Shown in pieces: positions 8,663 through 38,303 of a stretch of 57,675 nucleotides of DNA (position 1 is the first letter of the stretch; each line of letters begins with the position of its first letter). The notes under the pieces were generated by a model, which was not told where the DNA came from, ran no database searches, and worked only from the letters and a program-made list of their open reading frames with translations. Source of the DNA: an uncultured bacterium (GTDB lineage: Bacteria; Omnitrophota; Gorgyraeia; Duberdicusellales; CBEUCJ01); the NCBI GenBank assembly GCA_965541615.1, contig CBEUCJ010000006.1, forward strand, positions 1 to 57,675, written 5' to 3'. The position numbers and the translations under genes are program-made.

Positions 8663-8733
8663 GAATGTAAAATAAATCTTTACATCCAAAGAAAATTCCG
8701 ATATAATTTTTTGCAAGTAATTTTTTGATAAAG

Positions 8734-12129: not shown

Positions 12130-12158
12130 TTGACTTTAAAAATTATGTAGTATACAAT
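12130..12158 (+). promoter_or_regulatory. Putative sigma70-type promoter for the GGDEF / pilus-ATPase operon
   Basis: TTGACT (12130-12135), a 17-nt spacer, then TACAAT (12153-12158), ending 14 nt before ATG 12172. Confidence 0.4.
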
Positions 12159-12171
12159 TTAAGAAATAAAA

Positions 12172-15100
12172 ATGGAAGAAAAAGAAAATTTAAAAGAAAG
12201 TATTATTACTATAGACCCTCTTACTAAACTCTACACACGTTATTTTATTTATCATAATTTCCCAAAAATTCTTGAAGAAGCAAAGAATTTTGAAAAAAAG
12301 ATAGCAGTAGTTATGTTAGATATAGATAATTTTAAAAGTGTAAATGACACTTATGGTCATCTAAAAGGAGATGAAGTATTAAAAAAAGTAGCTGAAGTAT
12401 TAAAAAGGTCTGTAAGAGAAAAAGATATTTTAGTAAGATATGCAGGAGATGAATTTTTGGTGATTCTTAATGATGTAGATGAGAGAATAAGTAAAAATGT
12501 GGCTCAAAGAATAATAAAAGAGATAAGTAAAATCTCTATTGAAAAGATAAAAATCACTGTAAGTGCAGGTTTAGCTATATATCCTCAAGATGGTCAAACT
12601 CTTCAAGATTTACTCGATAAAGCAGATAAGGCTTTGTATCTTTCTAAAGAAAAAGGTAAAAACAGATTATCTTTAGCTCAAGAAGTCATCCAAGAGGCAA
12701 TAAGTATACAGGAAGCTTTAAAACTATTTCCTACTAAAAGATTTATAAATAGAACCCAACAATTAGAGTTTCTTAAAAAAAGACTCTCTGATACTTTGGG
12801 TGAAAAAATGTCTTTAGTTATAATTAAAGGAAAAGTTGGTATAGGAAAGACAAGACTTCTTAATGAATTTGAAAGATATGCTAAAGATTTACAGATAATA
12901 TCTTTAAAAAACATAGCTCAAGAAAGAAAAATGCTTCAGCCTTATTATACTCTTTCACAAGGATTAGAAGAATTTTTGCAAAACAATGAAGTTTTTTTAT
13001 CTGCATTAACTGCATCTTTACCACCAAAAGAAGTGCAAGCATTAGCTAAGTTATTACCTTCTTTTAAAAAACTCATAAAAGAAAGCCTTCAAGAAGAAAC
13101 AGAGGAAACCAGATTAAATATTTTTAAAGGCTTTAGAGATATATTCGTTCAATTCTCACAGTTTCAAGGACTTTTATTGTGTTTTGATGATGTTCAGTGG
13201 TTAGATGAAGCAACTCTTAGATTATTGAGTTATTTTATCGATAATGAATTTATTAGAAAGATAATGGTATGTTGCACTCTATCAGAAGAGGAACTAAAAG
13301 AGCATGCTCCTTTTAAAAAGTTTTTGAAATCACCTAAAAAGAATATAAATTTTGACATAATAGAATTACCACCTTTTGGATTAGAAGAGACCAAAGAAAT
13401 GATTTGCTCCATTTTTCCACAGATAACTGCTTCTGAAGAATTTTACAATTCTATATTTGAAATTACAGGAGGAAACCCTCTGTTTATAGAAGAGATGCTT
13501 AAATATCTAATAGAGAGTGGAGTAATTTTTTATAAAGATAAAAGATGGCAGATTCACAAGATTTCAAAAGAAGAAATTCCCTCTTCTTTAGAAGAAGTTT
13601 TAAAAAGAAGATTTAGGAAATTAGATCCTGAGACAAAGGAATTTTTAGCACAAGCAGTAGTTATTGGAAAAGATTTCCAGTTAGATTTTTTAAGGCACAT
13701 GGTAAAAAAAGATTTAGGTTTTCTTTTTGAATTAATAGATAGAGCTAAGAGAAGAGGTTTTATTGAGGCAAAAAAATTAAATACTTTTGATTTCTTAAAT
13801 CCTTTTTTACAAAAAGTTATTTATGAAGAGCTGAGCCCTTCTGAAAAGATATCTTTGCATAAGAAAATAACCCAAGCTATAGAAGAAGTCTATAAAAAAG
13901 AACCTCCTCCTCAAGACTTTTTGCAAGAGTTAACTTATCATTATGAAAAAATAGGAGATACTTCTAAATTGCACAAATATAAAACTCAGATAGAAAAGGA
14001 GATTTCAAAAATATTTGATCCAACTGAGATAACTTCTTATCTAGAAGAAATGACGACTGAAATTTCTACTGAAGAGACACCAGCTGAAGTGAAGATAAGA
14101 AAAATAGAAAAGAAAATAAAAGAAGAAGACTTTGAAAAGATAGCAGAATTCTTAAGATGGGTTTCAGCTGCTTTAAGAAATATTATTCTATATCCTGAAG
14201 GAAATCAGATTAGAGAATATTCTATCAAAAGAGCACATTCTGGCTTGATAGATATCTTTAATATTAATAAAGAGATTTCAAGTTTAACTTTTAATGAGGT
14301 AGAAGGAATACTTATCGTAAATGGTCATAGATTGCCTTCTCATTATGAAAAAGCTTTTTTTATTCAAAACTTTATTTCAACTTTGATAGAAAAAGAGATA
14401 AAAGGAGTCCAGTTTTTACCTGAATTAGAAGAAAAAGAATTAAGCGCATTTTTAGTTTTACTTTCTCAAAAAAGAGAAGATTTGAAAAAGAAAGGAGGTA
14501 TAGGTCAAATTTTGAAAGAAAAAGGAATAAAGAATATAAAAGTAGATACAGCTCGTTATGAGAGAGTGGCTACTCAACAGAGATTCCAGCCATTAGAAGA
14601 AAATATTATGAAATTTGCTCTTTTAGATATTCTTTCAGGAGAAAAAAAACAAAAGAGCGCAGAGACTTTAATTACATGGTTAAGTAAGTCTCCTCAAATC
14701 TTAGCTCAAAAACTTACTGAAATAGCAAGAGATTTTGTTCTAAAAAAATCAGGTAAAGTTGATTTTATTGAAGAGGCAAAGGTTGTTAGTGATTTTATTC
14801 AAAAGGTAGAAAAAATAGTTTCTGAAAGAGCTCCTCATTTTAAGGAAAGTTTAGTTAAGATGGTCTCTCATTTAGATAGTACTCTAAAAAGTTATTTAAT
14901 TTCTCAAAAAAGCTCTCCTTTACAAAAAGAAAAAGAAATGTTAGAGAAAATAGTAAATAACCTTTCAAATGAAGAGATAGTAGAGATGATAATCAATGCT
15001 TCAAGAGCAGGGAAAGATTCTCTTTTGCATATGCGAGAACTTTTTGAAAAGTTTACTTCATTAAAAGGAAGAAGAGAAGAGATAGCTTCTCTTTTGAAAA

Positions 15101-16173
15101 AGAGATTAAGTAAAATAGGATTAAGTGAAGGTGAAATTTCTTTTGTTATTCAAAAAGATTATAGCACATTAAGTTTAAAAGAAAAGGTAGATACCCTTTT
15201 AAAACTTCCACCTTCAGGATACTCTTCTTTGGGAATAGAAAATATAAGAGAACTTTTAAATAATTTGATAAAGAGTTCTCAAAAAGAAGCTTTAGAAAAA
15301 ATTATAGATAAATTCTTGTTTTATTTAAAACAAAGTGAATCTTCAGAAAAAGAAACTGTTTTCACAGTCTTAAACAACTTTTTAGAATCTACACCTTTAG
15401 AAGAGACACAAATAGACCCATATATAGCCAAAATAATCTCATCTTTAAAAGATGAAATATTAAATTTGGAATCTCCTTTTTATGAACACACACTTAAAAT
15501 TTTAGATTTAGTTATAAAATGGTGTTATAAAAGTGCTGTTACTTCTTTAAGCAAGGAAAGATACATAATCCATTTAAGATTTTCTTATCTTAATGAGTTA
15601 GTTGAATGTATTCACAAAGCTTTAAATAAAGAAAGCACTAATTTTAAAGTAGAAAGAAATAAAGAAAAATTAAGATTATTTGTTTTTAAACTTTTAGATA
15701 GTGATTTAGTAGAGACATTAATCTTTGAATTAGCCGATCCCTCTTTAGAACATACAGAAATAATTGAAAATATATTAGTTAAGCTTGGAGAACCTGCATT
15801 GAAAAAAATAATCTCTGTTATTGTATCTAAAACTGACTTTACTTTTGAAGGTTACATTTATCGTAAAAAAATAAGTTATGTTTTAAAAAAGATGGGAAAA
15901 AAAGCAGCTCAGGAACTAAAAAGAGCTTTGCTTTCTGAAAAAGAAATTCCTAAATTAATTCGTTTAATCGAGATAGTAGGTTTCTTACAAGACAAAGATT
16001 TTGTAGATGTCTTAGCTGAATTTAGCAAACACCCTGATTATGAAGTCAAAAAAACAGTTATTTCAGCTTTAGCAGAAATAGGAGGTTCTGAAGCTGAGAA
16101 GATTCTTTCTGAAATGAGCAGAAGTTCTGATGTGAGAATTAGTAGGTTAGCTGCAGAAAAGATTAAAAAGTGA
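12172..16173 (+). CDS. Multidomain signalling protein: GGDEF (AGDEF variant) diguanylate cyclase domain, AAA_16/STAND-type ATPase, long helical region, C-terminal HEAT repeats
   Basis: GGDEF domain in aa ~15-170, with the active-site motif RYAGDEF at nt 12442-12456 and the I-site-like REKD five residues upstream. Walker A GKVGIGKT (nt 12829-12852). Walker B-like LLLCFDDVQWLDEATLRLL. C-terminal HEAT-like repeats (PDYEVKKTVISALAEIGG..., SSDVRISRLAAEKI). Confidence 0.8.
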   Translation: MEEKENLKESIITIDPLTKLYTRYFIYHNFPKILEEAKNFEKKIAVVMLDIDNFKSVNDTYGHLKGDEVLKKVAEVLKRSVREKDILVRYAGDEFLVILNDVDERISKNVAQRIIKEISKISIEKIKITVSAGLAIYPQDGQTLQDLLDKADKALYLSKEKGKNRLSLAQEVIQEAISIQEALKLFPTKRFINRTQQLEFLKKRLSDTLGEKMSLVIIKGKVGIGKTRLLNEFERYAKDLQIISLKNIAQERKMLQPYYTLSQGLEEFLQNNEVFLSALTASLPPKEVQALAKLLPSFKKLIKESLQEETEETRLNIFKGFRDIFVQFSQFQGLLLCFDDVQWLDEATLRLLSYFIDNEFIRKIMVCCTLSEEELKEHAPFKKFLKSPKKNINFDIIELPPFGLEETKEMICSIFPQITASEEFYNSIFEITGGNPLFIEEMLKYLIESGVIFYKDKRWQIHKISKEEIPSSLEEVLKRRFRKLDPETKEFLAQAVVIGKDFQLDFLRHMVKKDLGFLFELIDRAKRRGFIEAKKLNTFDFLNPFLQKVIYEELSPSEKISLHKKITQAIEEVYKKEPPPQDFLQELTYHYEKIGDTSKLHKYKTQIEKEISKIFDPTEITSYLEEMTTEISTEETPAEVKIRKIEKKIKEEDFEKIAEFLRWVSAALRNIILYPEGNQIREYSIKRAHSGLIDIFNINKEISSLTFNEVEGILIVNGHRLPSHYEKAFFIQNFISTLIEKEIKGVQFLPELEEKELSAFLVLLSQKREDLKKKGGIGQILKEKGIKNIKVDTARYERVATQQRFQPLEENIMKFALLDILSGEKKQKSAETLITWLSKSPQILAQKLTEIARDFVLKKSGKVDFIEEAKVVSDFIQKVEKIVSERAPHFKESLVKMVSHLDSTLKSYLISQKSSPLQKEKEMLEKIVNNLSNEEIVEMIINASRAGKDSLLHMRELFEKFTSLKGRREEIASLLKKRLSKIGLSEGEISFVIQKDYSTLSLKEKVDTLLKLPPSGYSSLGIENIRELLNNLIKSSQKEALEKIIDKFLFYLKQSESSEKETVFTVLNNFLESTPLEETQIDPYIAKIISSLKDEILNLESPFYEHTLKILDLVIKWCYKSAVTSLSKERYIIHLRFSYLNELVECIHKALNKESTNFKVERNKEKLRLFVFKLLDSDLVETLIFELADPSLEHTEIIENILVKLGEPALKKIISVIVSKTDFTFEGYIYRKKISYVLKKMGKKAAQELKRALLSEKEIPKLIRLIEIVGFLQDKDFVDVLAEFSKHPDYEVKKTVISALAEIGGSEAEKILSEMSRSSDVRISRLAAEKIKK

Positions 16174-16598
16174 GAAAAAAATTAAAATTAGGTGAGATTT
16201 TGTTGGAAGCAACTTCTTTAACCAAAGATCAATTAAAAGAAGCTCTCTATCTTCAAGCAAAAGAAAATATCTCTAAACCTTTAGGTGAGATTTTGGTAGA
16301 AAAAGGATATGTAAGTAAAGAAGATGTGGAGTTAGCTTTAGGAATTCAAGAAGGATACCCTTTTATTTCGGTAAAAAATTATAATTTAATTCCAGATGTA
16401 GTTAAAAAGGTTCCCAAAGAAGTAGCTTTAAGATATTTTATTTTGCCTTTGGATTTAATAGATAATATAATGACAGTAGCTGTACCTTCTATTTCTGAAG
16501 AGATTTTAAATAAAATTGAGGAGTTAGGTTTTAAAGTTAGAATTTTTTTAGGTAGGAAAGAAGAAATAAAAGAAGCTTTAAAAAAGTACTTTGACTGA
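16170..16598 (+). CDS. Stand-alone T2SSE_N / MshEN-type domain protein (predicted c-di-GMP receptor)
   Basis: Residues 6-29 (KLGEILLEATSLTKDQLKEALYLQ) and 37-60 (PLGEILVEKGYVSKEDVELALGIQ) match the tandem 24-residue MshEN motif. The remainder resembles the GspE/PilB N1 domain. GTGA overlap with the GGDEF gene. Confidence 0.75.
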   Translation: MRKKLKLGEILLEATSLTKDQLKEALYLQAKENISKPLGEILVEKGYVSKEDVELALGIQEGYPFISVKNYNLIPDVVKKVPKEVALRYFILPLDLIDNIMTVAVPSISEEILNKIEELGFKVRIFLGRKEEIKEALKKYFD

Positions 16599-17784
16599 AA
16601 GATTTAAACAAACTTCAATAGTAGATCTTACTCACCATCTTCTTGTTGAAGGAGTCAATAAAAGAGCAAGTGATATTTTAATTGAACCTTTAGATGATGA
16701 GTTACAAATAAGGTTTCGTATAGATGGTGTGCTTTCTAAATTTGCATCTTTGCCTTCTGAAATGCATTCAAAAATAATTACCAGAATAAAAGTAATGGCA
16801 GGTTTAGATATTTCTGAAAAAAGATTACCTCAAGATGGTAGTTTTAAAATGAAATTTCCAGGAAAAGAAGTAGATTTCAGAGTCTCAGTAGTTCCTTCAA
16901 GATTAGGAGAAAGAGTGGTCTTAAGAGTCTTGGATAAAGGAAGGCTTATTTTAGATATTAATAAATTAGGTTTAGATCCTTATTCTTTAACTTCTCTTAA
17001 AGAGAGTTTATTAAGACCTTATGGAATAATTTTAATATGTGGTCCTACAGGTTCTGGGAAGACTACAACTTTATATGCTTCCATAAAATATATTGATTCT
17101 GTAGAAAAAAATATTGTAACAGTAGAAGACCCTGTAGAATACCAACTCTATGGTATAAATCAGGTTCAGATAAATGAAGAGATAGGCTTAACTTTTCCTG
17201 CAGTTTTACGTTCTATTTTAAGACAAGACCCAGATGTAATCCTGGTAGGTGAAATTAGAGATTCTGAAACTGCTGAAATTGCTGTAAGAGCTGCTTTAAC
17301 AGGACATTTGGTTTTAAGCACTCTTCATACGACTACAGCCACAGGTGGAGTTATCAGACTGATAAATATGGGAATAGAACCTTATTTAATAAGTTCATCT
17401 TGCCTTTTAATAGCTTCGCAAAATTTAGTCAGATTATTATGTCCAGATTGTAAAAAGCCTCAACCTCTTCCAAAAGTAATTTCAGTTCAATTAGAGCAAT
17501 ATGGATACAAAAAAGAAGAGATCCCAGAAATAATTTACACAGCTAAAGGTTGCGAGAAATGTAATAATACTGGTTACTTTGGTAGAAGAGCTATTATGGA
17601 AGCTCTGATGTTATCTCCTGAAATTAGAGAATTAATAGAAAAAAATGCTCCTGAAAGAGAAATCAGAAAGAAAGCAAGGATGCAAGGAATGAGGAGCTTG
17701 AGAGAAAGAGGATATGAACTCTTAATGAAAGGTTTGACTTCTTTAGAGGAGGTAATAAGAGTAACTTCTGCTCAAGAAGTTTAA
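16591..17784 (+). CDS. PilB/GspE-family secretion ATPase lacking the N-terminal (N1/MshEN) domain
   Basis: Walker A GPTGSGKTT, Asp box, Walker B (DPDVILVGEIRD), His box (TGHLVLSTLHT) and the tetracysteine motif CPDC...GCEKC, which is typical of PilB/GspE and not of PilT. TTG start overlaps the stop of the MshEN ORF by 8 nt. Confidence 0.85.
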   Translation: MTERFKQTSIVDLTHHLLVEGVNKRASDILIEPLDDELQIRFRIDGVLSKFASLPSEMHSKIITRIKVMAGLDISEKRLPQDGSFKMKFPGKEVDFRVSVVPSRLGERVVLRVLDKGRLILDINKLGLDPYSLTSLKESLLRPYGIILICGPTGSGKTTTLYASIKYIDSVEKNIVTVEDPVEYQLYGINQVQINEEIGLTFPAVLRSILRQDPDVILVGEIRDSETAEIAVRAALTGHLVLSTLHTTTATGGVIRLINMGIEPYLISSSCLLIASQNLVRLLCPDCKKPQPLPKVISVQLEQYGYKKEEIPEIIYTAKGCEKCNNTGYFGRRAIMEALMLSPEIRELIEKNAPEREIRKKARMQGMRSLRERGYELLMKGLTSLEEVIRVTSAQEV

Positions 17785-17797
17785 AATAGTTTTTAAG

Positions 17798-19390
17798 ATG
17801 GAAAAGCATTTTTCTAAAAAAGATGAACTAAATTATATGCTTGAGATTTCAGAGAAGCTAAATATTCCTTTTATAAGAATCTCTCAATATCAAATCCCCA
17901 AAGAATTACTCAATCTCATTCCAGAAAAAATAGCCCGCAATTATAAAGTTATTCCTGTAGCTAAATTCGGTCCAGTACTCACTTTAGCTATGGTAAATCC
18001 TCTCAACTTAATGATTTTAGATGAGTTGCGTTATTTAATAGGATTAGAGATAACCCCTGTAGTAAGCACTTCTTCAGAAATCTTGGAAGCAATAGAAATT
18101 TATTATAAGCCTTCTTTTGAGATGAGTATAGAGAAGTTAAAAGAAGAAAGGACAAAAGAAATAACCATTGAGAAGACAACAGCTGAAGAAGAAGAGTTAG
18201 ATATCTATAAACTTACAGAGATGAGTTCACAAGAAAAGGTAGTAAACACCCTCAATAATATTATCTTGGAAGCTTTGAAATCTAAAGCGAGTGACATTCA
18301 TATAGAACCCTATCAAGAACATATCAGAATCCGTTACAGAATAGATGGTGTTTTGACAGAAAAAATGACTCTTCCAAAAGATATGCAAGATGCACTTTTA
18401 GCCAGGATAAAAATAATGTCTAAATTAGATATTACTCAAAGGAAAATTCCCCAAGATGGCAGATTTACTATAAATTTTGAAGACAGAAACATAGATTTTA
18501 GAGTTTCAATTTTACCTACATACTTTGGAGAAAAAGGAGTCTTAAGGATTTTAGATAAAGGAAGAATGAAGTTAGATTTAAGAAGTTTAGGTTTTTCTGA
18601 GCGTGCTTTTGAAATATACAAAGAAGCTATCTTTTCTCCTTTTGGTATCATATTAATCACAGGTCCTACAGGTTCTGGAAAATCAACTACTCTGTACTCT
18701 ATGCTAAATGAGTTAAATACACCTGAAAAAAACATAGTTACAATTGAAGATCCAATAGAATACCATCTGAAAGGTATTGCTCAAATCCAGATAAAGCCAG
18801 AAATCGGTTTAGACTTTGCTCAATGTTTAAGGAGTGTTTTAAGACAATCTCCAGATGTGATTATGGTAGGTGAGATAAGAGACTTTGAGACAGCAGACAT
18901 TGCTATGAAATCTGCTCTAACAGGACATTTGGTTCTAACTACCCTTCACACAAATGATGCTCCATCAGCTATAACCAGATTGTTAGATATGGGAATAGAG
19001 CCTTTTTTGATAGCAGGTGCTTTAAGAATGGTTTCAGCTCAAAGATTGGTAAGAAAGTTATGTGATTACTGTAAAGAGAGTTATATCATAGATAAAAGGA
19101 GTTTAGAAAAATTTGGTATCTTTGTTGATAAAGAAGAAGTCGTTTTATACAGAGCTACTGGTTGTAATGAGTGTGATAGAGTAGGTTATAAAGGAAGAGA
19201 AGCTATAGTAGAAGCGTTTTTAGTAGATGATACTTTAAGAGAGATGATAATTCAGAGAGCCCCTCTCTTAGATATTAAAAAGTATCTGAAATCAACAGGA
19301 ATGCATACTTTACGTGAAGATGGTTTTCTGAAAGCTTTAAAAGGAGCTACTTCCTTAGAAGAAGTAATAAGAGTAACTGCCCAATTTTGA
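17798..19390 (+). CDS. pilB: Full-length PilB/GspE-family type IV pilus / type II secretion ATPase
   Basis: T2SSE_N-like N-domain without the MshEN 24-mer motifs. Walker A GPTGSGKST, DPDVIMVGEIRD, TGHLVLTTLHT, and CDYC...GCNEC. A GspE (T2SS) assignment cannot be excluded. Confidence 0.85.
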   Translation: MEKHFSKKDELNYMLEISEKLNIPFIRISQYQIPKELLNLIPEKIARNYKVIPVAKFGPVLTLAMVNPLNLMILDELRYLIGLEITPVVSTSSEILEAIEIYYKPSFEMSIEKLKEERTKEITIEKTTAEEEELDIYKLTEMSSQEKVVNTLNNIILEALKSKASDIHIEPYQEHIRIRYRIDGVLTEKMTLPKDMQDALLARIKIMSKLDITQRKIPQDGRFTINFEDRNIDFRVSILPTYFGEKGVLRILDKGRMKLDLRSLGFSERAFEIYKEAIFSPFGIILITGPTGSGKSTTLYSMLNELNTPEKNIVTIEDPIEYHLKGIAQIQIKPEIGLDFAQCLRSVLRQSPDVIMVGEIRDFETADIAMKSALTGHLVLTTLHTNDAPSAITRLLDMGIEPFLIAGALRMVSAQRLVRKLCDYCKESYIIDKRSLEKFGIFVDKEEVVLYRATGCNECDRVGYKGREAIVEAFLVDDTLREMIIQRAPLLDIKKYLKSTGMHTLREDGFLKALKGATSLEEVIRVTAQF

Positions 19391-19446: not shown

Positions 19447-21342
19447 ATGAAACATAAATATCTTTTTTTTATTTTTTTATTCTTCTTTTTGAAATATGGA
19501 TTCTCTCAAGATCCAATATCTCCTAAAATTAGAGTAGAAGGTGATACTCAAATAAAGTTTGGAACTTTAAGATTAAAACCTGTAAAAGACACCCCTCCTG
19601 CTTCTCCTCAATTAGGAGATTTGTATTTTGATGGGACTTATCTTTATACTTGGGATGGCTCAAATTGGGTGCAAGTTTCAGAAGAAGGTTCACTTTTCTT
19701 TAATGATGCAGATAATTCCTTATATTTTTATGATGGAGCTCAGTGGCAAAAATTAGGAGAAGGTGAAGGTCCTAAAAAAATAGCTACAAGGATAGTAGCA
19801 GCATCTGACTCTCCAGATAAAAGCAGAGCAGACTATATCTGTGATGGAACAGATGACCAAGAAGAAATAAATCAAGCAATAATAGATGTGTATTTTAATC
19901 AAAATAATCCAGGTTTGGGAGGTTCAGTTTATTTATTAGCTGGAACTTACAATATAAGTGATAATACATCTATTACTTACACAAAACCAGATGGCACTAC
20001 TTTAACTTATTCAACTCCAGGCATCGTTTTATACTCTAATATCTCCTTAATAGGTGAAGGAGCAGGCACAGTTTTAAAAGCAGTTTCTGGCACAGCTTAC
20101 GATATAATAAATGTAATTGGCTCTTCTACAGAGTTTCTCAAAGGTGCTTTTATTTCCCAATTAAGAGTAGATGGAAATAAAGCTAATGTGTCAGGTACAC
20201 ACAATGGAATTTATTTTAAGTATGCTCAGAATTCAAAAATTACAAAAGTATGGATTGAAAATTGTTCAGGTTCTGCAATAAAATTGGAAAACTCTTCTTA
20301 TAATATTTTCTCTAAAAGTTTTCTATTAAATTGCTCAAAAGGAATTTACTTTGATTCAAGTTCTAATAACATCATTGCAAAAAATATAATTGAAAATATA
20401 CCTGAAGGAGCTATATACTTTGCTTCAACTTCAGATAGCAATTATAACATAATAGAAAGCAATATTATTTACAATTTAACAGGAACAGTTACTACAGGAG
20501 CTATAAGATTACATGGTGATTACAATATTTTTTTGGCAAACCATATTACAAGTTCTAAAATAGGAGGCGTTTTAATAGAAGGTGATTACAATCTTTTATA
20601 TTCAAATCTATTAAGTGGTTTAGAAAATTTCGGAGTCAATTTATCTGGTTCTACTTACAATCTTTTATCTTCAAACCACATTCATTTAGGTTCTTCTAAT
20701 TCAGCTTATGGGATAAAAATAGAGTCGAGTTCAGATTCTAATCTTTTAGTGGGAAATTATATTTGGGACCAAGAAGATGATTTTGCTTCACTTTCAATCC
20801 TTGATTCAGATAAACTCCTCATAGCTTCCAATTACATACTTTATCCTGGAATCCCTGATTATGGGATTGAAATAGATAGTCTTTCAAAAGATAACTATAT
20901 TGTAGGAAATCAAATAATAGATAGCAGCACAAATTCTCCAGGAAATATAAAGGACAATGGCACAAATACTCAGTATACTCAAAAAGAAAAAATGACAATA
21001 GAAAAGTATACTTTTCCTTATCCATCTATTTCTTCTCCTTATAAATTAGATACTTTTGTCAATGTACGGGCTCACAGTTATATAGCTTTTAATATTAACA
21101 GAGCAGGCACTTATACTGTTTATTTAACGACAGGCAAATCTCCAGGTGACATACTTATCTTAGAGAACAAGACCAATAATAAAAATAACTTTATTAGAGT
21201 CTATGATTATACTGATCCTGGTTCTCCTTCAGGAAATGCAATAAATTTAAGTGTTTCTTACATAGATTTAGGCAAAAATGATGTTTTAAAACTGATCTGG
21301 AATGGAACTCACTGGATTGAATTAGAACATATTGATAACTAA
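19447..21342 (+). CDS. Secreted right-handed parallel beta-helix (PbH1/NosD-like) repeat protein, paralog 1 of 4
   Basis: Signal peptide ending GFS/QD. N-terminal motif duplicated (GDLYFDGTYLYTWDGSNWVQV and NSLYFYDGAQWQKL). DYICDGTDDQEEINQAI and GGSVYLLAGTYN. Many N.I..N-type beta-helix turns. Conserved ~130-aa C-terminal module ending LKLIWNGTHWIELEHIDN. Confidence 0.75.
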   Translation: MKHKYLFFIFLFFFLKYGFSQDPISPKIRVEGDTQIKFGTLRLKPVKDTPPASPQLGDLYFDGTYLYTWDGSNWVQVSEEGSLFFNDADNSLYFYDGAQWQKLGEGEGPKKIATRIVAASDSPDKSRADYICDGTDDQEEINQAIIDVYFNQNNPGLGGSVYLLAGTYNISDNTSITYTKPDGTTLTYSTPGIVLYSNISLIGEGAGTVLKAVSGTAYDIINVIGSSTEFLKGAFISQLRVDGNKANVSGTHNGIYFKYAQNSKITKVWIENCSGSAIKLENSSYNIFSKSFLLNCSKGIYFDSSSNNIIAKNIIENIPEGAIYFASTSDSNYNIIESNIIYNLTGTVTTGAIRLHGDYNIFLANHITSSKIGGVLIEGDYNLLYSNLLSGLENFGVNLSGSTYNLLSSNHIHLGSSNSAYGIKIESSSDSNLLVGNYIWDQEDDFASLSILDSDKLLIASNYILYPGIPDYGIEIDSLSKDNYIVGNQIIDSSTNSPGNIKDNGTNTQYTQKEKMTIEKYTFPYPSISSPYKLDTFVNVRAHSYIAFNINRAGTYTVYLTTGKSPGDILILENKTNNKNNFIRVYDYTDPGSPSGNAINLSVSYIDLGKNDVLKLIWNGTHWIELEHIDN

Positions 21343-21344
21343 AA

Positions 21345-21854
21345 ATGATTTATGAAGAGGTTTTTAAAGAGTTAAATAAAAGAAAAGTTAAATATGTAGT
21401 AGTAGGAGGCATAGCTCTGGTCTTATATGGTATATTACGCTTTACTGCAGATTTGGATTTAGTAATTCATTTAGAAGAAAAAAATATAGATAGATTCTTC
21501 AAAGCGATCAAAAATTTAGGTTTTAAACCAAAAGTTCCTGTTACAGAAGAAGAATTTAAAGATAAGAAAAAGAGAGCTGAATGGATAAAAAAGAAAAATA
21601 TGATAGTATTCTCTTTTTATCATCCAAAAGACCCCCTTAAAATAATAGATGTCTTTATAAAAGAGCCAATAAAATTTGAATCTCTTTATAAACAGGCAAA
21701 AAAAATAAAAGTAAAAAAGATTACCATTCCTTTAGCTTCTCTCAAGCATCTAAGACAACTTAAAAAAAGAGCAAAAAGAGAAAAGGATTTTATAGATTTA
21801 ATTAAGCTTAAAGATTTTGAAAAAATAGAAAAAGATGAAAAGAAAAAAATTTAA
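21345..21854 (+). CDS. Small nucleotidyltransferase-fold protein (DUF-type, toxin-antitoxin-like)
   Basis: VKYVVVGGIALVLYGILRFTADLDLVI matches the GG...D.D minimal nucleotidyltransferase signature. C-terminal KREKDFIDLIKL. Confidence 0.55.
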   Translation: MIYEEVFKELNKRKVKYVVVGGIALVLYGILRFTADLDLVIHLEEKNIDRFFKAIKNLGFKPKVPVTEEEFKDKKKRAEWIKKKNMIVFSFYHPKDPLKIIDVFIKEPIKFESLYKQAKKIKVKKITIPLASLKHLRQLKKRAKREKDFIDLIKLKDFEKIEKDEKKKI

Positions 21855-21939
21855 AGAAGATCATTTAGATTTATATTTAAAGTCTACTTATCTGCAAAGA
21901 TTAAACTGGTTAGAAAAAGCTCATGAATTTGTTAAAAAG

Positions 21940-23637
21940 ATGATAAAACTGAGTAAAAAAATTAAAGACCTTAAAAAGTTACTTTTCATTTTATTATTTA
22001 TTTTTCTTTTTATCTCTTACTCTTTTTCTGCAAAACTCAATATACCTGACAGCTTAATCATAGAAAGAACTCTTTATTTGGTCCCTCAATCAACACCACC
22101 TACTTGTGATGCAGATTCAGAAGGAAAGATATACTATGATGCAAATGATAAGACTATAAAATACTGTGATGGTTCTGGTTGGAAAGATTTAAGAGGAAAA
22201 GAAAGATCAGTAGCTACAGTAATAGTTGCAGCTAAAGACTCCTTAGATACAGTATGTGATGCTTCAGGTTGTACAAATGAAAGAGCAGATTTTACTTGCG
22301 ATGGAATAAGTGACCAAGTAGAGATAAATCAGGCAATTAATTCTTTGCCTCCTGAAGGAGGGGCAGTCTATTTATTAGAAGGAACATATAATTTAACTGG
22401 TAGTATACATATTAACAAAGATAATGTTTCTTTAATTGGACAGGGAAGAGGAACAATACTGAAAATAAATGGTATAGTTATAAATGCAAGTGGAACTTCT
22501 AGTGATCCTTTAACAGGTATTTTGATTTCTAAATTGAAAATAGAAGGTGAGCTTAGGTTTAATTGTATAGAAAAATCTGCAATTAATAGTCTATGGATTA
22601 AAACTCTACATGATGTTCACTGCTCTAATTATAAACACAATATTTTCTCAGAAAATTTCTTAAAAACTTCTATGGGGAGTTTATGGGTAAATTCTTCTTC
22701 TTCAAATATTTTTGCAAATAATATATTTGAAGGTTTAGAGTTATGGCTTACAGCTAATAGTAATAATAACATAGTAGAAAGTAATATAATTTATAATGTG
22801 CCATTTTATATGGGAGTTGGAATTATATATCTTCAAGATAAAGGAAATATTATTATGGGAAATAGTATACATAATTGTCCAGCAGAACCGACCGGAATAG
22901 GAGTTCGGTTTAATGCAAGTAACAATGTTATCTGCGCTAATAGTATATTTGATGTTAAATTATATGGAATACTTCTTAGCTCATCCCCAGAAGAAAACCT
23001 TGTATCTTCAAATCTAATTCATCTCCTCTCTTCAAATAATGCAAAAGGAATTGATTTAGCTTTTGACAAAAATCTTGTTACAGCAAATCTTATAAAAGAA
23101 GAAGCAAGTTGTAATGCTTTACACTTAAACTCTTTATCTAATGAAAATCTTATTACTTTCAATTATATAGATTCTTCTTATACTTCAGGATATGCAGTTG
23201 ATAATGATGGTTCAGATAACTATTTTGTAGGAAATCAGATAGTTGCACCTAATGCTTTAAAATTTTCTGATGATGGCACAAATACTCAACACATTCAAAA
23301 AGAAAAAATAACACTTGAACGCCAGACTGTAACTTTATCTTCTTCACCTGCAACTTTAGAAGTAGCTACTACTCCTCGTGGGTATGTAGTTTTTGATACA
23401 GGAGGTTCAAACATTCAATTAGGAGACCCAGCAAACAATATTAATGCAATAAATGATGGAAAAGCTCAAGGAGATTTACTCATCTTAGAAGGACCTTCAT
23501 CAGGTTCAGTCACAATTAAAAATGGAGCAAATGTTAAGTTAAAAGGAGGTTTAGATAGAACTTTACAATCTGAAGATACTCTGACTCTAATCTGGAATGG
23601 TTCTGATTGGATTGAAATAGCTTACAGCGATAATTGA
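21940..23637 (+). CDS. Secreted beta-helix repeat protein, paralog 2 of 4
   Basis: The ORF is open from ATG 21835, but a typical signal peptide (MIKLSKKIKDLKKLLFILLFIFLFISYSFS/AK) begins at ATG 21940. Family motifs: GKIYYDANDKTIKYCDGSGW, FTCDGISDQVEINQAI, GGAVYLLEGTYN, and the C-terminal GDLLILEG...LTLIWNGSDWIEIAYSDN. Confidence 0.75.
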   Translation: MIKLSKKIKDLKKLLFILLFIFLFISYSFSAKLNIPDSLIIERTLYLVPQSTPPTCDADSEGKIYYDANDKTIKYCDGSGWKDLRGKERSVATVIVAAKDSLDTVCDASGCTNERADFTCDGISDQVEINQAINSLPPEGGAVYLLEGTYNLTGSIHINKDNVSLIGQGRGTILKINGIVINASGTSSDPLTGILISKLKIEGELRFNCIEKSAINSLWIKTLHDVHCSNYKHNIFSENFLKTSMGSLWVNSSSSNIFANNIFEGLELWLTANSNNNIVESNIIYNVPFYMGVGIIYLQDKGNIIMGNSIHNCPAEPTGIGVRFNASNNVICANSIFDVKLYGILLSSSPEENLVSSNLIHLLSSNNAKGIDLAFDKNLVTANLIKEEASCNALHLNSLSNENLITFNYIDSSYTSGYAVDNDGSDNYFVGNQIVAPNALKFSDDGTNTQHIQKEKITLERQTVTLSSSPATLEVATTPRGYVVFDTGGSNIQLGDPANNINAINDGKAQGDLLILEGPSSGSVTIKNGANVKLKGGLDRTLQSEDTLTLIWNGSDWIEIAYSDN

Positions 23638-23647
23638 AAATAAAACC

Positions 23648-23805
23648 TTGGACACATCCGGAGTGTCCAAAGAACAAAGGTTGAGATGGGTGCCCAAAGA
23701 ACAAGATTGAGATTTGAGGAAATAAAGAAAGTTGTAAGTGAGAAACAAAAAAGGACAGTCCTTAAATGTTACACTTCTGGGGTGTCCAAAAAAACAAGGT
23801 TGAAA
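23648..23805. promoter_or_regulatory. Intergenic palindrome plus direct-repeat cluster upstream of, or overlapping, the start of paralog 3
   Basis: An 8-bp-stem palindrome TTGGACAC-atccgga-GTGTCCAA at 23648-23670. Three copies of GTG(T/C)CCAAA(G/A)AACAAG(G/A)TTGA(G/A)A at 23663-23686, 23690-23712 and 23782-23805. A further palindrome AAGGACAGTCCTT near 23749-23761. Confidence 0.4.
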
Positions 23806-25485
23806 AAAACGATCTTTAAAAAAATTAATTTATTCTTTCTTTTATTTTATTTTCTGCTTTCTCTTTCTTTCTCCCAACAAGACAACCTCTGTATAAAAGG
23901 CACCCTTCAAACTCAAACTCTAACTATAAAAGGTTCAGATACTCTGCCTGCTTCTCCTACAAAAGGTGAAATCTACTACAAAACAGATGAAGATACAATC
24001 TACTTTTATGATGGCTCACAATGGCAGAAAATAGGAGAAGGTCAAGACAAAACAGTAGCTTCTCAAATAGTAAGAACCCAAAACTCAAGATATGATGCAG
24101 ACAAAACCTGTGATGGAACAGATGATCAACAAGAAATTCAACAGGCAATAAATGATTTGGGAAATGATAAAGGTGCAGTTTATTTATTAGAGGGAGAGTA
24201 TAATCTTTCAGCTCTTGTCAGATTAGATTCACAAAATAGTCCTAATTATGATGGAATAAGTGATTTTAATAAGTCTATAATTGGAACAGGTGCAGGGAGT
24301 TTATTAAAAACAGATAGCCAAACGAACATAATTGAACTTTATTATAGTTGGGGAACTAAAAGAAGAAACCTTCTTTCTCAATTTAGAATGGATGGAAATA
24401 AAGTAGGATACGAGGGAATATATGCAATGTATCTTGCTCACAGTTTAATAGACAATGTTTGGGCAAGTAAGTTTTACTGTATAGGAATTAATTTAGGGAA
24501 TGCAAAAAAAAGTATACTTACTTCCTCTTTTGCTGAACAATGTAATTCTCGTTGGTTTTCTTCTGGAATGGGAGCTTATCCATGGGCAGGTTTTAGCTCT
24601 TCAATTCTTGCTAACAATATTAGTATAAGAAATTCACATGGAATTTGTACAGCAAAAGGGATATACAGTAGTATTATTTCTTTTAATATTGCTGGATATA
24701 TTTCTCATATACACAGTGCTAGTATGTATAATAATATCTTTATAGGAAATATTTTTTCTTTAAGCCATCAACAACCTGGGCATTGTATAGTGGTAGGAAA
24801 TAAGGGAGGAAATATAGGGCTTTTTATTGCATCCTTTAATATGGTTTCTTCCTGCAATGTAGCATCTATTGGTTTTGGCTGGTGGTGGTTGGATGATCAT
24901 TTTAATATAATATGGGGAAATATAGCTTCAAGAGACACGGGAACTTTAATTGGAATGAAAAGACATAAATATGGGTTAATTTCTTCTAATTTATGTTTTT
25001 GTACATCAGCTACTATTGGAAGTTGGCGTTGGTGTTGGCGTGGAATTGCTATTACAAACGCATATGGAGGTATTAGTACAGGTGTATATTTTGTAGGTAA
25101 TCTCATTGAAGGGGGCCCATTTTCTCAACAAATTAAAGTCGAAGATCAGGGTACTTCCACCTTCTACACAGACAAACTCAAACTCACTCTTGAAGGAAAA
25201 CCCCTTGATATCTCTAATTCAACTTATACTCTGGATATGACCACAAACCCAAGAACTTACTTTCAATTAAACCCTCAAGTTGATACTACTCTTTCTCTAC
25301 AAGATGGAAAATCACCTGGAGACCTACTCATCTTAGAAAATACAAGTTCTTCTTATACTATTACTATCTCTGAATCAAGAAATATAGAATTAGAAAAAAA
25401 CACTTTAACTTTAGGAGAAAATGACACCTTAATGCTCTTATGGGATGGAACAAAATGGATACAAACAGCTTATGCTGATAATTGA
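23686..25485 (+). CDS. Secreted beta-helix-family protein, paralog 3 of 4 (mosaic partner of paralog 4)
   Basis: ATG 23686 has AAGG 5 nt upstream but gives a 48-aa basic N-region. TTG 23800 would give a canonical signal peptide (MKKTIFKKINLFFLLFYFLLSLSFS/QQ). The N-terminal ~118 codons and C-terminal ~111 codons match paralog 4 with a single synonymous difference. The core is divergent and Trp/Cys-rich (GWWWLDD, SWRWCWRG). Confidence 0.7.
   Translation: MGAQRTRLRFEEIKKVVSEKQKRTVLKCYTSGVSKKTRLKKTIFKKINLFFLLFYFLLSLSFSQQDNLCIKGTLQTQTLTIKGSDTLPASPTKGEIYYKTDEDTIYFYDGSQWQKIGEGQDKTVASQIVRTQNSRYDADKTCDGTDDQQEIQQAINDLGNDKGAVYLLEGEYNLSALVRLDSQNSPNYDGISDFNKSIIGTGAGSLLKTDSQTNIIELYYSWGTKRRNLLSQFRMDGNKVGYEGIYAMYLAHSLIDNVWASKFYCIGINLGNAKKSILTSSFAEQCNSRWFSSGMGAYPWAGFSSSILANNISIRNSHGICTAKGIYSSIISFNIAGYISHIHSASMYNNIFIGNIFSLSHQQPGHCIVVGNKGGNIGLFIASFNMVSSCNVASIGFGWWWLDDHFNIIWGNIASRDTGTLIGMKRHKYGLISSNLCFCTSATIGSWRWCWRGIAITNAYGGISTGVYFVGNLIEGGPFSQQIKVEDQGTSTFYTDKLKLTLEGKPLDISNSTYTLDMTTNPRTYFQLNPQVDTTLSLQDGKSPGDLLILENTSSSYTITISESRNIELEKNTLTLGENDTLMLLWDGTKWIQTAYADN
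23848..24201 (+). repeat. Repeat block A, copy 1 (5' end of paralog 3)
   Basis: 354 bp matching 25641-25994 at a constant offset of 1793. By eye there is one mismatch (24180 T versus 25973 G, synonymous Val). Confidence 0.9.
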
Positions 25486-25492
25486 TTATTAT
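25154..25492 (+). repeat. Repeat block B, copy 1 (3' end of paralog 3 plus 7 nt past the stop)
   Basis: 339 bp matching 26989-27327 at a constant offset of 1835. No mismatch seen by eye, and the encoded 111 aa are identical. Confidence 0.9.
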
Positions 25493-25522
25493 TTAAAATA
25501 AAATTTTTTATCCCAAACCATG

Positions 25523-25556
25523 TGGACACCTCCGGAGTGTCCAAGGATGTTGAAAG
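25523..25556. promoter_or_regulatory. Second copy of the GGACAC/GTGTCC palindrome element, between paralogs 3 and 4
   Basis: TGGACAC-ctccgga-GTGTCCA at 25523-25543, followed by a shortened version of the CCAAGG..GTTGAAAG motif (25537-25556). Confidence 0.4.
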
Positions 25557-25580
25557 TTTTTAAAACTGAGAAGAAGAATA

Positions 25581-27379: not shown

Positions 27380-27757
27380 ATGCAAGCTGATTTTTTAAAA
27401 GAAAGAGCAGAAAAATTCCTTAAGAACGCAAAAGATTTGTTTAATAAAGAAGAGTATGATTTATCTGCTTTTAATTTAGAACAAGCCTGCCAACTTTTTT
27501 TAAAATACTATATCTTTCTTAAAATAGGTGATTTCCCTAAAACTCATTATTTAAAAAGATTAATAAGAGAAGTAGGTAAAGTCTATGAAAAAGAAGAAGA
27601 TGTAGAAAAATTAATTGAAGAAAATATAAGTGTGGTCTCTAACCTTGAAGACGCTTACATTGGAGCAAGGTATCTACCTTATATTTTTGAGAAAAAACAG
27701 GTAGAAAATATGATGGTATTTGTAGATAAGTTATTAAATTTTCTTAAAAAACTATGA
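27380..27757 (+). CDS. HEPN domain protein (PF05168-like)
   Basis: YDLSAFNLEQACQLFLKYYI..., PKTHYLKRLIREV and EDAYIGARY match the classic small HEPN signature. ATGA overlap with the downstream nucleotidyltransferase gene. Confidence 0.75.
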   Translation: MQADFLKERAEKFLKNAKDLFNKEEYDLSAFNLEQACQLFLKYYIFLKIGDFPKTHYLKRLIREVGKVYEKEEDVEKLIEENISVVSNLEDAYIGARYLPYIFEKKQVENMMVFVDKLLNFLKKL

Positions 27758-28166: not shown

Positions 28167-29366
28167 ATGCCAGTATTTGTTTATAAAGCAAAAGATTCTG
28201 AAGGAAAGACCACCAAATCTATAATCGAAGCTCCAAGTTATCAGGAAGCTCTATCAAAGTTAAGAGAAGAATTTTCTGCAGTTTTACTTTTAAAAGAGAC
28301 AAAAAGAAAATTTGCAAAGAGAATAAAGAAAGTAAGTTTAGATAGTTTAGCTCAATTCTCAAGAGAGTTAGCTACAATGGTAGGAGCAGGCACTCCTTTA
28401 GTAAAAAGTTTAACGATATTAGGAAATCAATTTAAAGAAAAGACTTTATCAGAAATTGCCCATGATTTAGCAAAATATATTGAAGCAGGAAACAGTTTTG
28501 CAGATGGGTTAAAAAAATACCCCAAAGTTTTCTCTCCTCTCTATATAAATACTGTAGTAGCTGGTGAAACCAGTGGAACTTTAAAAGATGTCTTAGAAAG
28601 ATTAGCTAATTATTTGGAGAATACATCTATTCTTTTAAGAAAAATAAAGACTGCCATGATCTATCCAACAGCAGTAGTTATCGTAGCAATAATTATTACT
28701 TCTTTTTTAGTCTTTAAAATCATACCTGGATTCAAAGAAATATTTGAGAATTTAGGAGGAGAGTTACCTTTACCTACAAGAATAGTTATAAAAGTAAGTG
28801 ATACTTTTAAGAAATATTTCTTTTTCATTGCAGGATTTTTTATTATAAGTTTTTTAATCTTTATTAGACTTATTAACACTTCTCGGGGCAGATTTTTATT
28901 CGATAAATTTAAATTAAAAATCCCTGTATTAGGTCCTCTTTTTCAAAAAGTGGCCATCTCGCGTTTTAGTAGAACTTTAGGGATACTTTTAAGGAGTGGT
29001 GTGCCTATTTTAGAAGCATTAAAAATTGTAAGTAAAGCTGTGGGAAACAAAGTATTAGAAGAATCTATTTTAAAGACTTTAGAAGAGGTAAGAAGAGGAA
29101 AGACTTTAGCTCCTAATTTAGAGAAAAGTAAAATATTTCCTCCAATGGTAATAGAGATGATAAGTGTAGGTGAAGAGAGTGGAGAGTTAGAGAATATGTT
29201 AGAGAATATAGCTGATAGCTATGATACTCAAGTAGATATAGCCACAAACAATCTGGTCTCTCTTATAGAGCCTTTTATCATCATTTTCTTAGGAGTCGTA
29301 ATTGGAGGAATAGTAGTTAGTATGTTTTTACCTATCTTAAAGATCACTCAACTCTTAGGAAGATGA
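28167..29366 (+). CDS. pilC: PilC/GspF-family inner-membrane platform protein
   Basis: 399 aa with two T2SSF-type repeats (SRELATMVGAGTPLVKSL... and SRTLGILLRSGVPILEAL...) and three TM regions. GspF cannot be excluded. Confidence 0.88.
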   Translation: MPVFVYKAKDSEGKTTKSIIEAPSYQEALSKLREEFSAVLLLKETKRKFAKRIKKVSLDSLAQFSRELATMVGAGTPLVKSLTILGNQFKEKTLSEIAHDLAKYIEAGNSFADGLKKYPKVFSPLYINTVVAGETSGTLKDVLERLANYLENTSILLRKIKTAMIYPTAVVIVAIIITSFLVFKIIPGFKEIFENLGGELPLPTRIVIKVSDTFKKYFFFIAGFFIISFLIFIRLINTSRGRFLFDKFKLKIPVLGPLFQKVAISRFSRTLGILLRSGVPILEALKIVSKAVGNKVLEESILKTLEEVRRGKTLAPNLEKSKIFPPMVIEMISVGEESGELENMLENIADSYDTQVDIATNNLVSLIEPFIIIFLGVVIGGIVVSMFLPILKITQLLGR

Positions 29367-30752: not shown

Positions 30753-31286
30753 ATGAAAAATAGAAAATCTTTTACTTTAATGGAGATGATGGTGGTTCTA
30801 AGTGTGTTTGCAGTAATTTCAGGTATAACTTTTACTGCCTTAAAACTTAATGATACTTATAGAGATACAGTATTAACTCAGCTTGAGTTATACAGAAAAG
30901 CTAAAAAAATCCATGATACCATTACAAAAGAACTTTCTCTTTCTCAAATCAATAGAATAAACATTACAGATTCTAATCCAGATGTCCTTACTTTTCAGAT
31001 ACCTCTTTTAAGTCAAATAGACGATAACTATACTATTCCTTGGGGAGCAGAAGAAAATGAAGGATATTATATAAGATACCAATTAATAGGAGATGAATTA
31101 AAAAGAGAAATCTTAGATTCTACATATTCACTTGTCTCTCAACAGACAGTTACTAAAGGTGTAGCTGACTTACAATTTTCTTCAGATTCAGAGAGCATAA
31201 CCATTAATTTTACACTTTCTAGGACTAATATTGAAGGAAGGGTTATAAATTTTACTTCTCAATTTAAAGTTTACTTAGCAAATTGA
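30753..31286 (+). CDS. Minor pseudopilin (prepilin-type N-terminal cleavage/methylation domain protein)
   Basis: MKNRKS/FTLMEMMVVLSVFAVISG class III signal with Glu at +5. Small beta-rich body, GspJ/PilW-like in size. Confidence 0.75.
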   Translation: MKNRKSFTLMEMMVVLSVFAVISGITFTALKLNDTYRDTVLTQLELYRKAKKIHDTITKELSLSQINRINITDSNPDVLTFQIPLLSQIDDNYTIPWGAEENEGYYIRYQLIGDELKREILDSTYSLVSQQTVTKGVADLQFSSDSESITINFTLSRTNIEGRVINFTSQFKVYLAN

Positions 31287-32141: not shown

Positions 32142-32171
32142 AAAGTGGGATAAAGTGGGATAAAGTGGGAT
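32142..32171 (+). promoter_or_regulatory. Three tandem MraZ-box direct repeats (AAAGTGGGAT x3)
   Basis: Perfect 10-bp period. GTGGG at 32145-49, 32155-59 and 32165-69. The last repeat abuts and overlaps the mraZ ATG (32170). Confidence 0.7.
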
Positions 32172-33810: not shown

Positions 33811-33826
33811 ATTTTTTAATTCTTAA

Positions 33827-38302: not shown

Positions 38303-38303
38303 A

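Follow-up and report, generated by a model that had tools for sequence, protein, structure and literature searches.

We examined a 57,675-nucleotide (nt) stretch of DNA from an uncultured bacterium of the Omnitrophota (contig CBEUCJ010000006.1 of assembly GCA_965541615.1; hereafter the window), in which two overlapping open reading frames (ORFs) together resemble the two parts of a PilB/MshE-type ATPase. ORF1 (16170..16598, + strand, GTG start) encodes a stand-alone MshEN domain protein of 142 amino acids (aa), and ORF2 (16591..17784, + strand, TTG start) encodes a 397-aa PilB/GspE-type assembly ATPase that lacks an N1 domain. Comparison with related loci shows that ORF1 and ORF2 are both genuine genes, belong to one operon and are conserved in Omnitrophota. 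We consider it probable that, as two real and conserved genes, they form part of a pathway in which a dedicated diguanylate cyclase encoded directly upstream feeds a trans-acting receptor for cyclic di-GMP (c-di-GMP), the ORF1 protein, which in turn controls the N1-less motor.

The two-gene arrangement is conserved in related loci

An exact look-up of ORF1 matched no contig, the window protein being unique, and close homologs were used instead. A search of ORF1 against 5.8 billion proteins gave 29 matches, in which the homologs at 46–96% identity were all stand-alone proteins of 142–149 aa. On the contigs that carry such homologs the gene order is a GGDEF/AAA_16/HEAT gene (product of ~1330 aa), an MshEN gene (142–147 aa), a gene for an ATPase with T2SSE only (396–399 aa) and a PilB gene (530–535 aa). 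This order of cyclase, MshEN, N1-less T2SSE and PilB was found in the loci designated L001, L003, L004, L008, L088/L089, L090 and L091, and also in L002, where the contig ends within the cyclase gene; L007, a partial locus, has kept the MshEN-to-ATPase junction. The comparison of fused with split forms that an earlier note on this DNA had proposed, when run, gave the two-gene form at all ten of the further N1-less loci examined, over MshEN identities from 96% down to 36%. The nearest relatives in a species-level genome collection were metagenome-assembled genomes (MAGs) of Candidatus Omnitrophota.

The same picture was obtained starting from the motor. Among the best 120 matches to ORF2 were many homologs of 380–428 aa in which Pfam recognised no domain but T2SSE, all of those with a named source being from Omnitrophota; these homologs were interleaved, at 55–59% identity, with full-length forms of ~571 aa. 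When three of the T2SSE-only homologs were looked up, an MshEN gene encoding 142–152 aa was found directly 5' of each, with a large GGDEF gene before it. The ratio of non-synonymous to synonymous substitution rates (dN/dS) relative to L091 was ~0.12 for ORF1 (an approximate value, with dS near saturation) and 0.12 for ORF2, pointing to purifying selection on both genes, each in its own frame. A genuine two-piece receptor plus motor, which the earlier note had listed as one of three possible explanations, is strongly supported by these comparative data.

ORF2 encodes a complete ATPase core

The Pfam T2SSE model aligns with ORF2 over positions 5–370 of its 370 (E 9.7e-133), and the protein comprises N2 and a C-terminal ATPase domain with the tetracysteine motif. 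Its sequence boxes are intact, namely Walker A (GPTGSGKTT), Asp/Walker B (ILVGEIRD), the His box (TGHLVLSTLH), CPDC and CEKC. On the PilB profile TIGR02538, ORF1 covers positions 1–136 and ORF2 positions 178–563, and the break therefore falls in the N1–N2 linker, in agreement with the previous description of ORF2 as a complete core that starts where N1 would end. ORF2 also aligns with positions 107–486 of TIGR02533; its scores of 509 bits (TIGR02538) and 522 bits (TIGR02533) lie below the respective equivalog cut-offs of 676 and 630, a shortfall due to the missing N-terminal part. From these matches ORF2 is assigned as a PilB/GspE-type hexameric assembly ATPase without an N1/MshEN domain of its own.

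A second ATPase, a PilB paralog of 530 aa, is encoded immediately downstream (17798..19390, + strand), and its gene occupies this position at all related loci. It matches Pfam MshEN at 21–105 and T2SSE at 143–525, and retains the T2SSE_N1 subdomain. Its alignment with TIGR02538 begins at profile position 49, the four-helix c-di-GMP subdomain being absent, and it was correctly said to lack the MshEN motifs.

ORF1 retains the ligand contacts of MshEN domains

ORF1 has the architecture of a complete MshEN domain, with a four-helix MshEN_N subdomain followed by a T2SSE_N1-like alpha/beta MshEN_C subdomain. The curated NCBIfam model NF053729 ('c-di-GMP_motif', cyclic di-GMP-binding domain, MshE-related; cut-off 38) scores residues 6–59 at 48.3 bits, and the Pfam MshEN model matches residues 62–142. 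Sequence matches in the PDB were to Thermus thermophilus PilF, to Geobacter and Myxococcus PilB and to Vibrio cholerae MshE (5HTL), and the whole of ORF1 also matches the MshEN region of NfrB (1.9e-14). An AlphaFold2 model of ORF1, built with 16 family members, has a predicted local distance difference test score (pLDDT) of 91.6 and shows four helices followed by a beta-alpha region. The best Foldseek matches to this model were c-di-GMP-bound PilF GSPII-B (8PDK) and MshE (5HTL), with template modelling (TM) scores of 0.71–0.73 over ~140 columns.

The MshEN motif is 24 residues long and occurs twice in tandem. It is written (R/K/L)LGxx(L/V/I)(L/V/I)xxG(L/V/I)(L/V/I)xxxxLxxxLxxQ, and the published relaxed form is [RKPN]hGxxhhxx[GAS]hhxxxxhxxxhxx[QNKRYWST] (PMC5013675). 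The earlier note had reported two tandem matches in ORF1, and neither is exact. Motif II (P37–Q60, PLGEILVEKGYVSKEDVELALGIQ; 16278..16349, + strand) fits the relaxed pattern. Motif I (K6–Q29, KLGEILLEATSLTKDQLKEALYLQ; 16185..16256, + strand) has K, T and S at positions 1, 10 and 11, all three deviations from the strict consensus; its ligand-contact positions are kept and its turn positions 10–11 are degenerate.

The residues of MshEN domains that contact the ligand have been defined by Wang et al. (PMC5013675) and Neissner et al. (PMC11731258), and all ten positions (Leu2, Gly3, Leu17, Leu21 and Gln24 of both motifs) are kept in ORF1. No variation is seen across the 16 family members at L7, G8, L26, Q29, G39, L57 and Q60, and at least 90% of the members have K6; the other contact positions vary conservatively, with L, I or V at position 38, V or I at 53, and L22 replaced by I in a few members. 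There is precedent for a K at position 1 of motif I in PilF GSPII-B and for a P at position 1 of motif II in GSPII-C, and both of these domains bind c-di-GMP by isothermal titration calorimetry (PMC11731258). The spacer between motifs I and II is seven residues rather than five, and the aligned GSPII-C sequence has a spacer of the same length. In two more distant members of the module, L088 and L090, motif I fits the relaxed pattern, and in L090 both motifs do; the family is thus ancestrally canonical, and the sub-clade of the window has drifted at a structural, non-contact position. Taking the sequence and the structural model together, ORF1 likely binds c-di-GMP.

A putative cyclase gene is coupled to the MshEN gene

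The gene upstream of ORF1 (12172..16173, + strand) encodes a 1333-aa protein with GGDEF, AAA_16 (a STAND-type nucleoside triphosphatase, NTPase) and HEAT-repeat regions. It matches Pfam GGDEF (8.7e-44), AAA_16 (4.9e-15) and, at the C-terminus, HEAT_2 (4.6e-08), as well as TIGR00254 (1.9e-45). The stop codon of this gene and the start of ORF1 share 4 nt (GTGA). The cyclase gene adjoins the MshEN gene on its 5' side at every N1-less locus where the contig reaches far enough upstream; it accompanies the N1-less ATPase in the loci examined and is absent from L009 and L010, which encode full-length ATPases. All eight of the orthologs compared (window, L001, L003, L004, L008, L088, L090 and L091) have AGDEF, not GGDEF, at the A-site, and in all of them an RxxD I-site precedes it by five residues. 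Activity at an AGDEF site has a precedent in V. cholerae VCA0965. By analogy the 1333-aa protein would have cyclase activity, and it is a plausible source of ligand for ORF1.

A promoter-like site (TTGACT-17-TACAAT; 12130..12158, + strand), identified by a consensus scan just 5' of the cyclase gene, is a possible promoter for the operon; such sites are not enriched over shuffled sequence, and the evidence is weak. The scan found no terminator-like sites between the genes on the + strand over 12172–19390, which is likewise weak evidence, and gave no other informative signal.

Proposed control of the motor and competing interpretations

In the pathway that we propose, the GGDEF(AGDEF)-STAND-HEAT protein would make c-di-GMP locally, and the 142-aa ORF1 protein would take it up in its four-helix subdomain. 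Liganded ORF1 would then dock non-covalently on the motor, on the PilC platform or on both, so providing in trans the regulatory and anchoring role that the fused N-domain has in MshE, PilB and GspE, and gating pilus assembly or secretion. The short overlaps or short gaps between the genes would couple their translation, such that receptor and motor are made together. The ATPase activity of MshE in vitro is barely changed by c-di-GMP and regulation is thought to run through partners (PMC5013675), so a role for the ligand in recruitment or assembly fits better than direct catalytic activation.

Several points weigh against this proposal. Motif I does not fit the relaxed pattern, having T-S at positions 10–11 in place of [GAS] followed by a hydrophobic residue; the glycine at position 10 has been described as required for the alpha1–alpha2 turn (Wang et al., PMC5013675), and c-di-GMP binding could be weakened or lost through this T-S. 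The A-site of the putative cyclase is non-canonical. The physical interaction between ORF1 and ORF2 is a proposed one, and the receptor might serve the PilB paralog or the cyclase instead. The duplication-plus-loss history that we set out below is based on two loci with full-length ATPases (L009 and L010).

The first of these points leads to an alternative in which ORF1 is an MshEN-fold adaptor that has lost c-di-GMP binding and acts as a constitutive, detached N1 domain, docking the motor to the membrane platform. It would account for the failure of motif I at positions 10–11 in the sub-clade of the window, and degenerate MshEN domains that do not bind the ligand are known, for example in XpsE (PMC5013675). 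Moreover, the N1 domains of GspE bind GspL; the Foldseek matches of ORF1 to 2BH1 and 4PHT are weak (E > 0.3). We nevertheless regard this alternative as unlikely. An adaptor role alone needs none of the L2, G3, L17, L21 and Q24 contacts, whereas all are kept in both motifs, and the residues at position 17 are substituted conservatively (I for L22 in some members and for V53). The score against NF053729 lies above a curated hidden Markov model cut-off, and a conserved, translationally coupled GGDEF gene lies directly 5'.

An alternative of distinctly lower probability is that ORF1 is a real c-di-GMP receptor whose main partner is the PilB paralog, or the HEAT/STAND part of the cyclase in a feedback role, and not ORF2. 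The paralog is without MshEN_N at all loci of the module, Myxococcus xanthus FrgA has an MshEN-unknown-HEAT architecture (supplement of PMC5013675), and stand-alone MshEN genes also adjoin full-length ATPases (L005, L009 and L010). On the other hand, the MshEN gene lies directly 5' of the N1-less ATPase gene at each of the ten other loci, often with stop and start overlapping, and the loss of the whole N1 domain from the motor is explained most simply if a separate protein supplies its function.

The junction between ORF1 and ORF2 is not a slippage site

The two genes meet in an 8-nt stop/start overlap (TTGACTGA; 16591..16598, + strand), a junction of the translational-coupling kind, and a run of six A residues (A6; 16580..16585, + strand) lies just upstream of it. 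The coordinates of both ORFs, the overlap and the run are all as the earlier note gave them, and it was also right that only an event within 16582–16595 could fuse the frames, since the ORF2 frame (+1 relative to ORF1) is shut by a TAA at 16579–16581. Removal of one A from the run would yield a fusion product of 537 aa, not the 539 aa that had been calculated.

The run itself is made up of Leu-Lys-Lys codons (TTA AAA AAG), which belong to the helix '...EIKEALKKY..' conserved at the C-terminus of the MshEN domain. The window, with a GC content of 29.3%, contains 251 runs of at least six A residues (~4.4 per kb), and the A6 at the junction recurs only in the near-identical L001 and L002, being absent from the junctions of L091, L003, L004, L007, L008, L088 and L090. 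For these two reasons the A6 run is incidental, neither unusual nor a switch. To describe it as separating receptor from motor, as the heading of the earlier note did, is misleading, the junctions being unconserved and mostly without an A-run.

The junctions vary from locus to locus. In the window, L001 and L002 the overlap is 8 nt with ORF2 in the +1 frame and a TTG start. The closest diverged relative, L091 (85% ATPase identity), has the same overlap, frame and start codon, and there Arg-Arg codons (AGG AGA) replace the A-run; the replacement also creates a Shine-Dalgarno-like AAGGAG, which lies five bases 5' of the TTG. Overlaps of 8 nt and a +1 frame are found again in L004, with a GTG start, and in L007, with an ATG. 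The remaining junctions all have an ATG start: a 13-nt overlap in the +2 frame in L003, a 62-nt gap in the +2 frame in L008, a 9-nt gap in the same frame in L090, and a 57-nt gap in the same frame, with a further in-frame stop, in L088/L089. No slippery site, frame relation or overlap is common to all of the loci, and neither programmed frameshifting nor a homopolymer switch can therefore be a property of the system.

It is accordingly very improbable that a phase switch, a programmed +1 ribosomal frameshift or transcriptional slippage produces a part-time fusion of receptor and motor in the window. A Lys-tRNA could slip +1 on AAA-A inside the 14-nt fusable segment, and an A_AAA_AAG heptamer stands in slippage phase, though a –1 slip there gives merely ...KKVL-stop. 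Against this, frame offsets of +1, +2 and 0 are all seen, the L088 spacer holds its additional stop codon, L091 has AGG AGA where the run would be, six A residues are too few for efficient slippage, and such runs occur 251 times in the window. The homopolymer phase switch that the earlier note had allowed for is refuted on these grounds.

Two other routes to a fused product were considered and rejected. Classical –1 frameshifting on A_AAA_AAG gives no fusion, the –1 frame stopping after two codons; the heptamer (16580–16586) is in phase for such slippage in ORF1, and a slip would shorten ORF1 by one residue. Stop-codon readthrough would be possible only in L090, since L088 has a second in-frame stop and the frames in the window differ. 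In L090 (4740–4754) the MshEN gene ends in a single TAG with the in-frame ATG of the ATPase gene 9 nt further on, and readthrough would fuse the two.

A sequencing or assembly indel, with a true A5 at 16580–16585 and a single fused MshE-like protein of 537 aa, would be the trivial explanation, homopolymers being error-prone and the loss of one A joining the frames cleanly, and it is refuted to the point of being negligible: L001 and L002, from two independent Joint Genome Institute (JGI) assemblies, carry the identical A6 and 8-nt overlap and neither has an A5 or A7 variant in its DNA, four close ORF1 homologs are all 142 aa with an identical C-terminus, 142-aa products with that C-terminus come from JGI, European Nucleotide Archive (ENA) and Logan assemblies, diverged orthologs without the A-run are likewise split, some with intergenic gaps, and purifying selection acts on ORF1 and ORF2 in their own frames.

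Probable evolutionary origin of the free-standing MshEN protein

Two Omnitrophota MAGs (L009 and L010) bear on how the two-gene state arose. Each encodes a stand-alone MshEN protein followed by two full-length ATPases (573–575 and 568 aa) and PilC, and neither has a GGDEF gene at the locus. ORF1 shares 40–41% identity (100–106 bits) with these stand-alone MshEN proteins and 27–29% (47–60 bits) with the N-domains of the adjacent full-length ATPases, and ORF2 shares 52% identity with the first ATPase and 46–48% with the second. A simple recent fission of an MshE gene is disfavoured, ORF1 being closer to the stand-alone MshEN proteins than to the ATPase N-domains. Since orthologous stand-alone MshEN genes precede full-length ATPases in these genomes, the most likely history is that a motor with a free-standing sensor paralog beside it lost its own N-domain, and not that a gene was recently broken at the A-run. 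'Split' is probably the wrong evolutionary picture.

A second family of stand-alone MshEN proteins, of 149 aa, is encoded in L005 (1857–2306) and also in L006 (proteins P0015–P0021). The L005 gene lies between those for a PilT-like ATPase and a full-length PilB, with genes for PilC and a PilS-like kinase next, in a more GC-rich organism. In a library of representatives at 50% identity, 33 of the best 150 profile matches were single-domain proteins of at most 200 aa. This count and the L005 family show that free-standing MshEN proteins are a broad class, not confined to the Omnitrophota module.

These threads can be drawn into a fuller scheme, which we put forward tentatively and hold to be less probable than its negation. 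A single free-standing MshEN protein would have taken over the sensing of c-di-GMP entirely; a dedicated cyclase under STAND regulation would load it, and it would act as a ligand-dependent, non-covalent clutch for two sensor-less PilB-type motors, one without N1 and one with N1 and no four-helix sensor. The motors would drive a pilus or secretion machine tied to beta-helix, depolymerase-like proteins, and the arrangement would have originated by sensor duplication and N-domain loss rather than by fission.

Genomic surroundings

Downstream of the second ATPase gene lie four genes for beta-helix/Phage_depo_C proteins, followed by those for a PilC/GspF platform protein (28167..29366, + strand; Pfam T2SSF 1e-62), a Kelch protein and a pilin or pseudopilin that carries a methylation motif at its N-terminus (30753..31286, + strand; Pfam N_methyl 3.6e-07), and then a division and cell wall (dcw) cluster. 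In L088–L090 the PilC gene comes directly after the second ATPase gene. The four beta-helix paralogs (19447–27320, between the ATPase genes and pilC) are ~580–630 aa long and have hydrophobic N-termini; the first two match NosD/Beta_helix (right-handed beta-helix), and in the last three the C-terminal domain matches Phage_depo_C. In L001, L003, L090 and L091 the gene for the PilB paralog is likewise followed by such genes, and the encoded proteins may be substrates or accessories of the machine. Among the beta-helix genes are a nucleotidyltransferase-like gene (21345–21854; weak AbiEii/DUF6036 match) and a HEPN-domain gene (27380–27757), which may be parts of toxin-antitoxin or defence pairs.

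The dcw cluster (32170–39392; MraZ, RsmH, a PBP transpeptidase, two Mur ligases and an MraY-like glycosyltransferase) begins right after the pilin genes, and an AddAB-like pair (47725–53639; a UvrD helicase and a PD-(D/E)XK nuclease) lies further on; both look like ordinary housekeeping genes. No Pfam match was found for the ORFs at 31283–32038, 4767–5903, 7353–8030 (– strand) and 8243–8716 (– strand), which encode 157–378 aa. The first of these, directly 3' of the pilin gene, could encode a minor pilin or assembly component.

Implications of a separate MshEN protein and motor

A receptor and a motor that are naturally separate provide a system for asking how the binding of c-di-GMP to MshEN drives pilus assembly or secretion. 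It could be addressed whether the liganded receptor acts on the motor, the platform or both, whether a covalent link is needed, and how one sensor might serve two motors, although the organisms concerned are uncultured. The module also adds an operon-encoded unit of cyclase, receptor and effector to the examples of local c-di-GMP signalling. For annotation, it implies that 'GspE/PulE family' proteins of 380–428 aa (from Omnitrophota where the source is named) are not truncated artefacts, and that the small 'hypothetical' genes 5' of them, as at the ten related loci, are likely to encode regulatory subunits of N1-less ATPases.

Literature searches returned no description of an N1-less PilB/GspE motor with an MshEN receptor gene as its partner, and nothing specific on MshEN, or on a cyclase-MshEN-ATPase module, in Omnitrophota. 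A survey paper on Omnitrophota mentions type IVa pili, and does not mention PilB, GGDEF or c-di-GMP.

Comparison with known systems

The two-piece state is unsurprising in principle. The closest counterpart in domain content is V. cholerae MshE (and PA14_29490), a fused MshEN-T2SSE protein in which the same domains occur in the same order as in ORF1 plus ORF2: the four-helix c-di-GMP subdomain, T2SSE_N1, then N2 and the ATPase domain with its tetracysteine motif. The predicted fold of ORF1 matches that of MshE (5HTL) with a TM score of 0.72, and ORF1 and ORF2 span the PilB profile except for the linker. MshE is however a single polypeptide, whereas all the members of the clade that we examined have receptor and motor as separate polypeptides. 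It also has a five-residue spacer between its motifs where ORF1 has seven, and motif I of ORF1 starts with K and is without the turn glycine.

T. thermophilus PilF gives both the best structural match (TM 0.71–0.73) and the best sequence match to ORF1. Motif I of GSPII-B begins with K, as in ORF1, and GSPII-C ('KPLGEILVE...') agrees exactly with ORF1 in its seven-residue spacer and in the P that opens motif II. In PilF, by contrast, three such domains in a row are covalently fused to the ATPase, and the turn glycine of motif I is retained.

An MshEN-type protein that, like ORF1, has no ATPase domain is already represented by Pseudomonas aeruginosa PA3740, which consists of MshEN_N and a divergent T2SSE_N1, is among the experimentally characterised c-di-GMP binders and has been linked to swarming (Wang et al., PMC5013675). 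Free-standing MshEN receptors are thus a known kind. PA3740 differs in that the sources examined describe no cognate N1-less ATPase for it, and in its highly divergent C-terminal subdomain, which in ORF1 is canonical.

Control of a PilB motor in trans by separate proteins that carry a c-di-GMP signal is likewise found in the PilB-PilZ-FimX complex of Xanthomonas citri (7LKO), and the N-domain of X. citri PilB has the same fold as ORF1 (Foldseek ranks 13–16). There, however, the receptor is the EAL domain of FimX, bridged by PilZ, and PilB keeps its N-domain, whereas in the window the N-domain is itself the detached receptor.

The pairing of an MshEN receptor with a specific diguanylate cyclase that we propose has its precedent in Escherichia coli, where the dedicated cyclase DgcJ feeds the MshEN domain of the GT2-MshEN protein NfrB in local c-di-GMP signalling (PMC8669469). 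The output of NfrB is a glycosyltransferase and not a secretion ATPase, and DgcJ is not an operon neighbour of its receptor in E. coli. In the window, unlike DgcJ, the putative cyclase shares a polypeptide with a STAND NTPase and HEAT repeats, and its gene is translationally coupled to that of the receptor.

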